Shown here: positions 43,531 through 43,774 of the stretch, one piece after another
How positions within the stretch are numbered: position 1 is the first letter of the stretch
Layout: every line of letters starts with the position of its first letter
Origin: a virus
Lineage: Duplodnaviria > Heunggongvirae > Uroviricota > Caudoviricetes
Direction: 5' to 3' (one strand)
Length of the DNA stretch: 46,116 bases
Virus record (IMG/VR): IMGVR_UViG_2565956722_000005
Span: 1-46,116 of that record
Made by a program: the position numbers and the translations under genes
The notes under the pieces: generated by a model
What the model was told of the DNA's origin: nothing
The model's input: the letters and a program-made list of their open reading frames with translations, nothing else
Databases searched by the model: none

Positions 43531-43694
43531 GAACGAGTATCGAGATGGCACATAGCCTCGCTCAAATTGGAGTCAGGTTTGTGCCAATACCAGTAGAAAC
43601 AGACGAAGAATTTCATACGTTAGCCGCATCCCTTTCACAAAAGCTGGAAATGATGGTGGCGAAAGCAGAAGCAGATGAGAGAGACCAGGTATGA
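43503..43694 (+). CDS. hypothetical small acidic protein
   Basis: 63-aa ORF with GGGGAG RBS; stop overlaps the start of the next small ORF. Confidence 0.45.
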   Translation: MHKASPVELRTSIEMAHSLAQIGVRFVPIPVETDEEFHTLAASLSQKLEMMVAKAEADERDQV

Positions 43695-43774
43695 CAACCA
43701 CGGAATGCATTTTTCTGGCAGCGGGCTTCATATTCTGTGTGCTTATGCTTGCCGACATGGGACTTGTTCAATGA
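43691..43774 (+). CDS. 27-aa hydrophobic single-helix peptide (not in ORF track)
   Basis: Hand translation MTTTECIFLAAGFIFCVLMLADMGLVQ; ATG overlaps upstream stop (ATGA) and its TGA overlaps the next ATG (ATGA). Confidence 0.45.
   Translation: MTTTECIFLAAGFIFCVLMLADMGLVQ

Follow-up and report, generated by a model that had tools for sequence, protein, structure and literature searches.

Does a 27-codon open reading frame (ORF) lodged between two early genes of a lambdoid prophage encode a peptide of its own, or is it a by-product of its neighbors? The question was raised by a 46,116-nt stretch of viral DNA (IMG/VR record IMGVR_UViG_2565956722_000005, positions 1 to 46,116; hereafter "the window"), a lambdoid prophage in which a small ORF of 27 codons plus a stop runs from ATG to TGA at 43691..43774 on the plus strand. 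Its product would be MTTTECIFLAAGFIFCVLMLADMGLVQ. A preliminary description made from the DNA alone had reported this hidden ORF, an ATGA at each of its ends and a location in the early-left (pL) operon. The coordinates and translation proved correct, the junctions read gtATGAca upstream and caATGAca downstream, and the order of plus-strand genes bears out the location. An S24-peptidase repressor, a kil-like gene, gam, bet, exo, orf60a (DUF1317) and orf63 (DUF1382) precede the small ORF, which thus sits in the exo-xis region; orf61 (71 aa), a TraR/DksA-type gene (lambda orf73) and a DUF4222 gene follow it, and the integrase gene lies beyond these on the opposite strand. As argued below, the small ORF is likely a genuine protein-coding gene of the pL operon that specifies a coupled, single-span membrane peptide and also acts as a ribosome relay for orf61.

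The peptide was said to be hydrophobic, and indeed it is: its grand average of hydropathy (GRAVY) is 1.62, which places it in the top ~1% of the 139 ATG-initiated ORFs of 22–35 aa found in the six frames of the window. A 16-residue hydrophobic core, CIFLAAGFIFCVLMLA, is flanked by E5 and D22. The Hessa-scale score of this core is -3.41, and it averages 2.8 by Kyte-Doolittle; the spacing from E5 to D22 is 17 residues, and 19-residue windows, which take in D22, score about 0. The predicted sequence is most naturally read as a single short membrane helix.

Natural variation across the small ORF

Variation was scored in loci anchored on a conserved piece of orf61 outside the small ORF, making the sampling blind to the small ORF itself. 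We collected 80 loci by protein match, and 120 viral contigs and 120 metagenome contigs by DNA pattern. The main statistics draw only on the two pattern-anchored sets (241 loci, with 215 non-duplicated ones carrying the small ORF), because the protein-match set shares contigs with them. Only the part of the small ORF that overlaps no other gene (43695..43770) was considered.

Variants seen in at least two of the 215 loci were 11 synonymous to 6 non-synonymous in the small-ORF frame (29% synonymous expected; binomial p=0.002). Scored in the other two forward frames, these variants gave 2:15 (orf61 frame) and 4:13 (third frame). For variants present in at least five loci, the ratio was 5:0 in the small-ORF frame and 0:5 in each of the other two. 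Synonymous variants occurred in 146, 78, 13, 12 and 8 loci; non-synonymous ones were never found in more than 4 (Mann-Whitney p=0.004). Despite the common synonymous variants, 88% of the 215 loci encode an identical peptide. The core of orf61, our positive control, yielded 22:19 against an expected 28% synonymous (p=0.0005), and the larger locus set agrees on coding constraint in the small-ORF frame.

Individual variants illustrate the pattern. The commonest, G>T at 43702 (147 of 316 loci), changes one threonine codon to another at T4 of the small ORF (ACG>ACT) and creates a stop in the orf61 frame (GGA>TGA). A>G at 43771, present in 32 loci, is silent at Q27 of the small ORF (CAA>CAG) and turns the orf61 start from ATG to GTG, which is still a start codon. 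One haplotype, carried by 38 of 222 loci, has ACG instead of ATG at 43675, keeps the ATGA junction and shows three more differences in the small ORF, all of them synonymous there. Judged from these comparisons, the small-ORF frame is the only one of the three forward frames under purifying selection.

Could this instead be a chance ORF in a spacer that looks conserved because the block is young? The block is 95–100% identical in nearly all records, as this explanation would require, and a version of it that places a gene on the minus strand (ORF 43573..43758) can point to a partial synonymous excess there (9:8, p=0.015). However, the third codon positions of the minus-strand ORF are in phase with those of the small ORF, so that it inherits part of the signal, and neither a frame-specific synonymous excess nor the observed frequency spectrum is expected of a spacer. 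We regard this explanation, in either version, as extremely improbable. The minus-strand ORF was rejected on further grounds: the commonest variants in the orf63 overlap (43520, 43541, 43559 and 43626) are non-synonymous in it and follow the orf63 frame, C>T at 43756 abolishes its ATG in 11 loci, and it is antisense to the operon, with no promoter-like site facing it. An RNA element was also considered and set aside, as the RNA was less structured than shuffled controls (z=+1.7) and had no match in Rfam.

Junctions, initiation signals and mosaic contexts

The preliminary description had proposed conservation in related prophages as a check, and both the reading frame and the junctions are widely conserved. 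Among 307 loci having an ORF that ends at the orf61 start, 303 carry the 27-codon ORF with its upstream ATGA; the downstream junction is ATGA in 278 and GTGA in 29, that is, one or the other in all 307. The few departures from an intact ORF comprise three variants with a stop at Q27, a 1-nt deletion in a metagenome contig, two loci with a junction inside the small ORF (L228, and L010, described below), and an E. coli locus (L229; RTHV02000047.1, 2400-2520) in which an IS66-family element interrupts the small ORF after about codon 6. A database protein that we had considered as a natural variant with a new peptide N-terminus (P0024) was rejected, being the product of this IS66 insertion, a chimeric 100-aa "Orf61". 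It represents a cluster of 125 members, which implies a sizeable E. coli lineage with a disrupted allele.

The small ORF also keeps its arrangement when its upstream neighbor is exchanged. A Dam methylase gene takes the place of orf63 in PhiR30_1 and in 35 sampled loci, where homology to the window resumes exactly at the ATG of the peptide. Here, too, this ATG overlaps the upstream stop (gctgcATGAca), and a GGGAGG lies upstream. A module boundary at a gene boundary is what phage mosaicism leads one to expect, and these recombinants indicate that the small ORF travels with orf61. SfI-type phages lack the small ORF; their orf61 opens at the equivalent codon (MTIEHNNAL), follows another upstream gene whose stop lies 7 nt before it, and has a GAGG of its own. 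A programmed frameshift from orf63 into the small-ORF frame was rejected: inspection of 43679-43694 revealed no slippery heptamer, and the conservation of the start ATG in three different upstream contexts also counters it.

Pairing of the start regions with the anti-Shine-Dalgarno (anti-SD) sequence was computed as duplex energies, which averaged -2.1 kcal/mol at random positions (Table 1). These energies and the two ATGA overlaps fit a putative termination-reinitiation chain leading from orf63 through the small ORF to orf61. In such a chain, ribosomes finishing orf63 (or the Dam methylase gene in the recombinants) would stop at the UGA within AUGA and re-initiate on the overlapping AUG, aided by the purine-rich Shine-Dalgarno (SD) stretch. 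The 27-residue peptide would be made, and its core between E5 and D22 would insert into the inner membrane as one short helix. At the second AUGA, the ribosomes would stop again and be passed to the true start of orf61, whose own SD is weak. So construed, the small ORF would encode a peptide and at the same time relay ribosomes to orf61. We consider it very likely that the small ORF is a translated gene, with translation arising by coupling. The series of ATGA overlaps continues downstream, where the orf61 stop overlaps the ATG of a 31-codon ORF.

Might the relay be all there is? If the small ORF were translated solely to carry ribosomes from orf63 to orf61, its peptide being functionless, one would expect the conserved ATGA at both ends and could accommodate the third ATGA junction after orf61, as well as an orf61 SD that is weak here but replaced by a proper one where the small ORF is absent. 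A pure relay, however, would not constrain amino acids, whereas synonymous changes are strongly favored and the peptide is identical in the large majority of loci; nor would a relay need to be extremely hydrophobic. We therefore deem a relay without a functional peptide unlikely, and retain the reading in which the small ORF serves in both capacities.

Table 1. Features in and around the small ORF, with computed pairing of start regions to the anti-SD sequence
Feature	Position (strand)	SD energy (kcal/mol)	Remarks
Kil-like gene, "phage encoded cell division inhibitor protein" (PGAP name)	41305..41511 (+)		Upstream of gam
orf63 homolog (DUF1382), upstream coupling partner	43503..43694 (+)		PF07131, 3e-31
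ATG of annotated lambda orf61 / 103-aa ORF	43675..43677 (+)	-4.9	Rejected start; SD 13-14 nt off, mis-spaced
SD-like purine-rich stretch GAGAGAGA	43677..43684 (+)		6 nt 5' of small-ORF ATG
Small ORF	43691..43774 (+)	-5.6	GAGAGAG, 6-nt spacer
Small ORF in Dam context		-10.3	GGGAGG at same position
ATGA junction 1	43691..43694 (+)		Small-ORF ATG 43691-43693 overlaps orf63 TGA 43692-43694
ATG of 93-aa "long Orf61" (Phi24B/933W type)	43705..43707 (+)	-3.8	Rejected start; SD 13-14 nt off, mis-spaced
ATGA junction 2	43771..43774 (+)		Small-ORF TGA 43772-43774 overlaps orf61 ATG 43771-43773
orf61 core, 71 aa, downstream coupling partner	43771..43986 (+)	-3.9	Weak; most neighbor genes -6 to -7.7; PGAP call in identical genome
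SfI-type orf61 (without small ORF)		-5.6	Good spacing, own GAGG
31-codon ORF MNMKSKIIRELQAPFLLFAFTLKRINQQFRD	43983..44078 (+)		ATG overlaps orf61 stop (third ATGA junction)

The start of orf61, annotation and the published mutants

The region from 43300 to 44100 of the window is 98% identical to lambda 30598..31399, and the 84-nt small ORF has 100% nucleotide identity to lambda NC_001416 complement(30925..31008). The annotated lambda orf61 (30839..31024) covers the small ORF in a different frame. Its start ATG corresponds to window position 43675, from which the window has an open frame of 103 codons (43675..43986). On a genome identical to the window, the Prokaryotic Genome Annotation Pipeline (PGAP) called only the 71-aa gene and left 43695..43770 unannotated.

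These annotations raise another explanation, namely that the stretch encodes the N-terminus of a longer Orf61 (93/103 aa, as in lambda, Phi24B, 933W and PHROG 303) and that the 27-codon ORF is an untranslated by-product. Forms of 93-103 aa are annotated in many records, the PHROG 303 profile has a length of 101, and at one locus (L010, described below) an upstream ATG is in frame with orf61. The variants argue otherwise. Between 43695 and 43770, none of the five common variants is synonymous in the orf61 frame (0/7 in the larger set), and in 147 of 316 loci the TGA at 43702 closes this frame upstream of 43705; moreover, the haplotype of 38 of 222 loci has ACG in place of the ATG at 43675. As a result, the 103-aa form cannot be made in about half of phages. 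Neither ATG 43675 nor ATG 43705 has a properly spaced SD, whereas orf61 of the SfI type starts at the 71-aa position and PGAP calls the 71-aa form. In models of the Phi24B 93-aa protein, residues 1-23 are inconsistent between methods and lie outside the fold (PMC8614690). The variant pattern implies that the N-terminal 22-32 residues of "long" Orf61 are without protein-level constraint. From this and the stop in the orf61 frame, we conclude that the 93/103-aa forms are mis-annotations, that orf61 is a 71-aa gene starting at 43771, and that the longer-Orf61 explanation of the small ORF is very unlikely. Lambda orf61 and the "long Orf61" of Shiga toxin (Stx) phages (PHROG 303; vb_24B_7c) thus occupy the same DNA and cover the whole small ORF, but the latter would be a separate gene in a different frame.

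Lambda's own copy of orf61 is also frameshifted. The poly-A tract of orf61 (~43825-43830) has seven A residues in lambda (L001) and six in the window; across 332 sampled loci, A6 occurs in 309 and A7 in 23. The extra A cuts lambda orf61 to 61 codons. Since A6 is common and A7 rare, we take lambda orf61 to be a mutant, truncated allele of the 71-aa gene, and a review indeed remarks that lambda Orf61 "appears to be truncated" (PMC8614690).

How widespread is the small ORF? Of 5426 complete E. coli genomes, 3142 (58%) contain its DNA, as do 175 phage records, including lambda, 434, 21, 933W, VT2-Sakai and Phi24B. In every E. coli record inspected, only the two neighboring genes were listed at the match, with no PGAP call of the small ORF. 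The exact peptide does occur in databases as an automatic "hypothetical protein" or "uncharacterized protein" (981 contigs; UniRef entry A0A0A2SGE8_ECOLX), and no paper in the library searched contains its sequence. On these matches, the putative small gene is common to lambda and most lambdoid and Stx prophages of E. coli. The 90%-identity cluster of the peptide (P0001) also holds two unrelated 428-aa proteins (P0006, P0007), a clustering artefact.

Two published sets of "orf61" mutants bear on this region. For the lambda frameshift allele of Bloch et al. 2014, the primer CTTCATATTCTGTGTG*TTATGCTTGCCGACAT deletes the C of GTG-CTT (PMC4195576); this base, at window position 43742, opens codon 18 (Leu) of the small ORF. 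When carried on an exo-xis plasmid, the frameshift allele delayed phage development after induction (PMC4195576). Dydecka et al. 2018 made their deletions by replacing orf61 as annotated (PMC6213356); since annotated lambda orf61 spans the small ORF, the latter should have been removed too. Lysogens and survivors became more numerous, and in Phi24B induction was weaker (PMC6213356). The effects were modest. Because the core of lambda orf61 is already frameshifted, the effects in lambda may belong to the peptide gene or to coupling. Very probably, lambda itself harbors an unannotated small hydrophobic protein, predicted here, that would confound the published mutants.

Lambda serves as the reference for temperate phages, and the genes of its exo-xis region are being studied one by one because the region influences Shiga-toxin prophage induction. 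If our reading is true, the annotated starts of lambda orf61 and of the 93/103-aa Orf61 in Stx phages are wrong, and structural models of "Orf61" include an N-terminal segment that does not belong there. The frameshift and deletion mutants published for orf61 would be double mutants whose phenotypes need re-assignment, and a conserved membrane peptide would be missing from the RefSeq annotation of ~58% of complete E. coli genomes. The chain of ATGA-coupled small genes would also offer a clean, testable example in an early phage operon.

The peptide, its possible role and neighboring features

Several observations weigh against a coupled gene for a membrane peptide. The comparison covers one closely related block (at least 90% identity), with ~30 distinct variants and phylogenetically related loci. 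We found no divergent homolog; tblastn against phages returned only identical or near-identical copies, none below 92% identity. Because SfI-type orf61 occurs without it, the small ORF is dispensable for orf61 as such; it is also missing, together with orf61, from Klebsiella phages that have an orf63 homolog. At a locus of Escherichia sp. E1V33 (L010, ~1400-1500), the sequence switches to another upstream gene within the small ORF, costing the latter its first ~7 codons; the ATG of the ATGA junction is here in frame with orf61 and yields a fusion resembling the 93-aa form, the only case seen that favors a long Orf61. Our literature search turned up no evidence of translation for the 27-aa ORF, and the Sakai Ribo-seq small-gene supplements contained no match to it. 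As for lambda, a review citing the ribosome profiling of Liu et al. 2013 lists only a 7-aa and a 31-aa new ORF in the region (PMC8614690); the annotated lambda orf61 could, we suggest, have masked the small ORF in such experiments. Finally, the peptide has no K, R or H and a net charge of about -2, so that a positive-inside flank is missing, and its hydrophobic core is short (16 aa). In view of these last two features, we rate membrane insertion as moderately probable from the sequence.

What might such a peptide do? The preliminary description had suggested a Kil-like factor that kills the host or inhibits its division. Its picture of a hidden, ATGA-coupled ORF for a hydrophobic peptide in the pL operon stands, but the Kil-like role found no support. 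A membrane toxin of this kind would fit a gene of the pL operon, expressed early and repressed in lysogens, and small hydrophobic peptides are often toxic when over-expressed. In addition, the exo-xis region has been linked to a block of host DNA replication initiation ("bin", cited in PMC9239242). Against this, the peptide matched no Pfam, PHROG or NCBIfam family and has no similarity to Kil, KilR or DicB; these, too, are small products of early phage operons, but of a different position from that of the small ORF, which lies downstream of exo, orf60a and orf63. The window has a separate annotated division-inhibitor gene, upstream of gam (Table 1). Lambda Kil is a protein of 47 aa and is not known to be a membrane peptide. 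The small ORF is, besides, found in more than half of complete E. coli genomes, and the published "orf61" mutants, from which it should be missing, display only mild effects of a pro-lytic type (PMC6213356). We consider a Kil-like toxin quite unlikely.

Comparison with other small proteins is instructive. KdpF, AcrZ and MgtS, single-span bacterial proteins that modulate larger proteins of the membrane, likewise have fewer than 50 aa, comprise about one hydrophobic helix and were missed by annotation pipelines. The peptide described here differs from them in having no sequence similarity, no basic flanks and a net negative charge, and in being phage-encoded with predicted expression only in lytic development. 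It shares with the type I toxins (Hok, TisB, Ibs, ShoB and DinQ) a small size (19-50 aa for the toxins) and hydrophobic, helical character, but it lacks their typical basic residues, and its ORF lies in a polycistronic operon with 4-nt overlaps. No promoter or antisense RNA gene belonging to the small ORF was detected; the sole promoter-like site in 43300-44400 is at 44059..44030 on the minus strand, ~250 nt away.

Our best guess is that the peptide is an early membrane-inserted modulator that doubles as a relay. We think that it contributes to the early pro-lytic effects published for "orf61"; that it does so through a host membrane target is a tentative proposal. A bolder version, which we hold to be somewhat more doubtful still, is that the peptide rather than Orf61 underlies the lambda "orf61" phenotypes, acting early on a component of the host inner membrane to tip the lysis-lysogeny decision toward lysis. 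The argument for it is that the orf61 core of lambda is frameshifted already and that the frameshift and deletion alleles both disrupt the peptide gene; lambda and most Stx phages would then possess an overlooked early membrane peptide.

The 31-codon ORF downstream of orf61 bears some likeness to published findings. Within it, at 44007-44025, lies a terminator-like hairpin with a T-run; only a portion of phage records annotate the ORF. A review (PMC8614690) describes, from lambda ribosome profiling, a 31-aa peptide ORF in this region, "orf2313", which, given its equal length, is probably the ORF at 43983..44078. Like the small ORF, it is a small unannotated ORF of the same operon that starts at an ATGA overlap, two genes downstream; it differs in sequence and position, and footprint support has been reported for "orf2313".

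The flanking genes gave further observations. In orf63 (43531..43690), 10 synonymous and 25 non-synonymous distinct variants were counted, with no overall synonymous excess, and the commonest variants were synonymous. Variation is unrestrained in the final ~6 codons (D>N, Q>P/L, V>A), pointing to a C-terminal tail, immediately ahead of the ATGA junction, that is relaxed or disordered. The gene at 43771..43986 is named "cell division protein ZapA" by PGAP in many genomes. We followed this name as a cell-division lead and rejected it: the Pfam match is below threshold (16.1 bits vs. 23.8, E=0.014), and a PDB search gave no ZapA. In light of the sub-threshold match, the name looks unfounded. The orf61 core also has a weak ankyrin-repeat-like match (TPTHLSLAIGMLNG, E=3e-4 to 5y4d). 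Farther upstream, the ~600 nt between the repressor and the kil-like gene (40710..41304, plus strand) hold no annotated gene in the identical RefSeq genome, and on inspection no clear N-like ORF of 40 aa or more was seen in them; early-left antitermination may be arranged differently in this prophage than in lambda.

A protein search with the 71-aa neighbor retrieved E. coli sequences only. Its use in a contig scan as a route to distant homologs was abandoned, as the matches were almost only lambda DNA contaminating unrelated assemblies. Lambda DNA of the A7 type was seen in assemblies labeled Shewanella, Bradyrhizobium, Pseudomonas, Paenibacillus, Kitasatospora, Oceanobacillus and others (L011-L024, L026-L028), and is almost certainly contamination by lambda control DNA. 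The GenBank record "Campylobacter phage CJLB-4" is, like the lambda records, 98% identical to the query over 801 bp.

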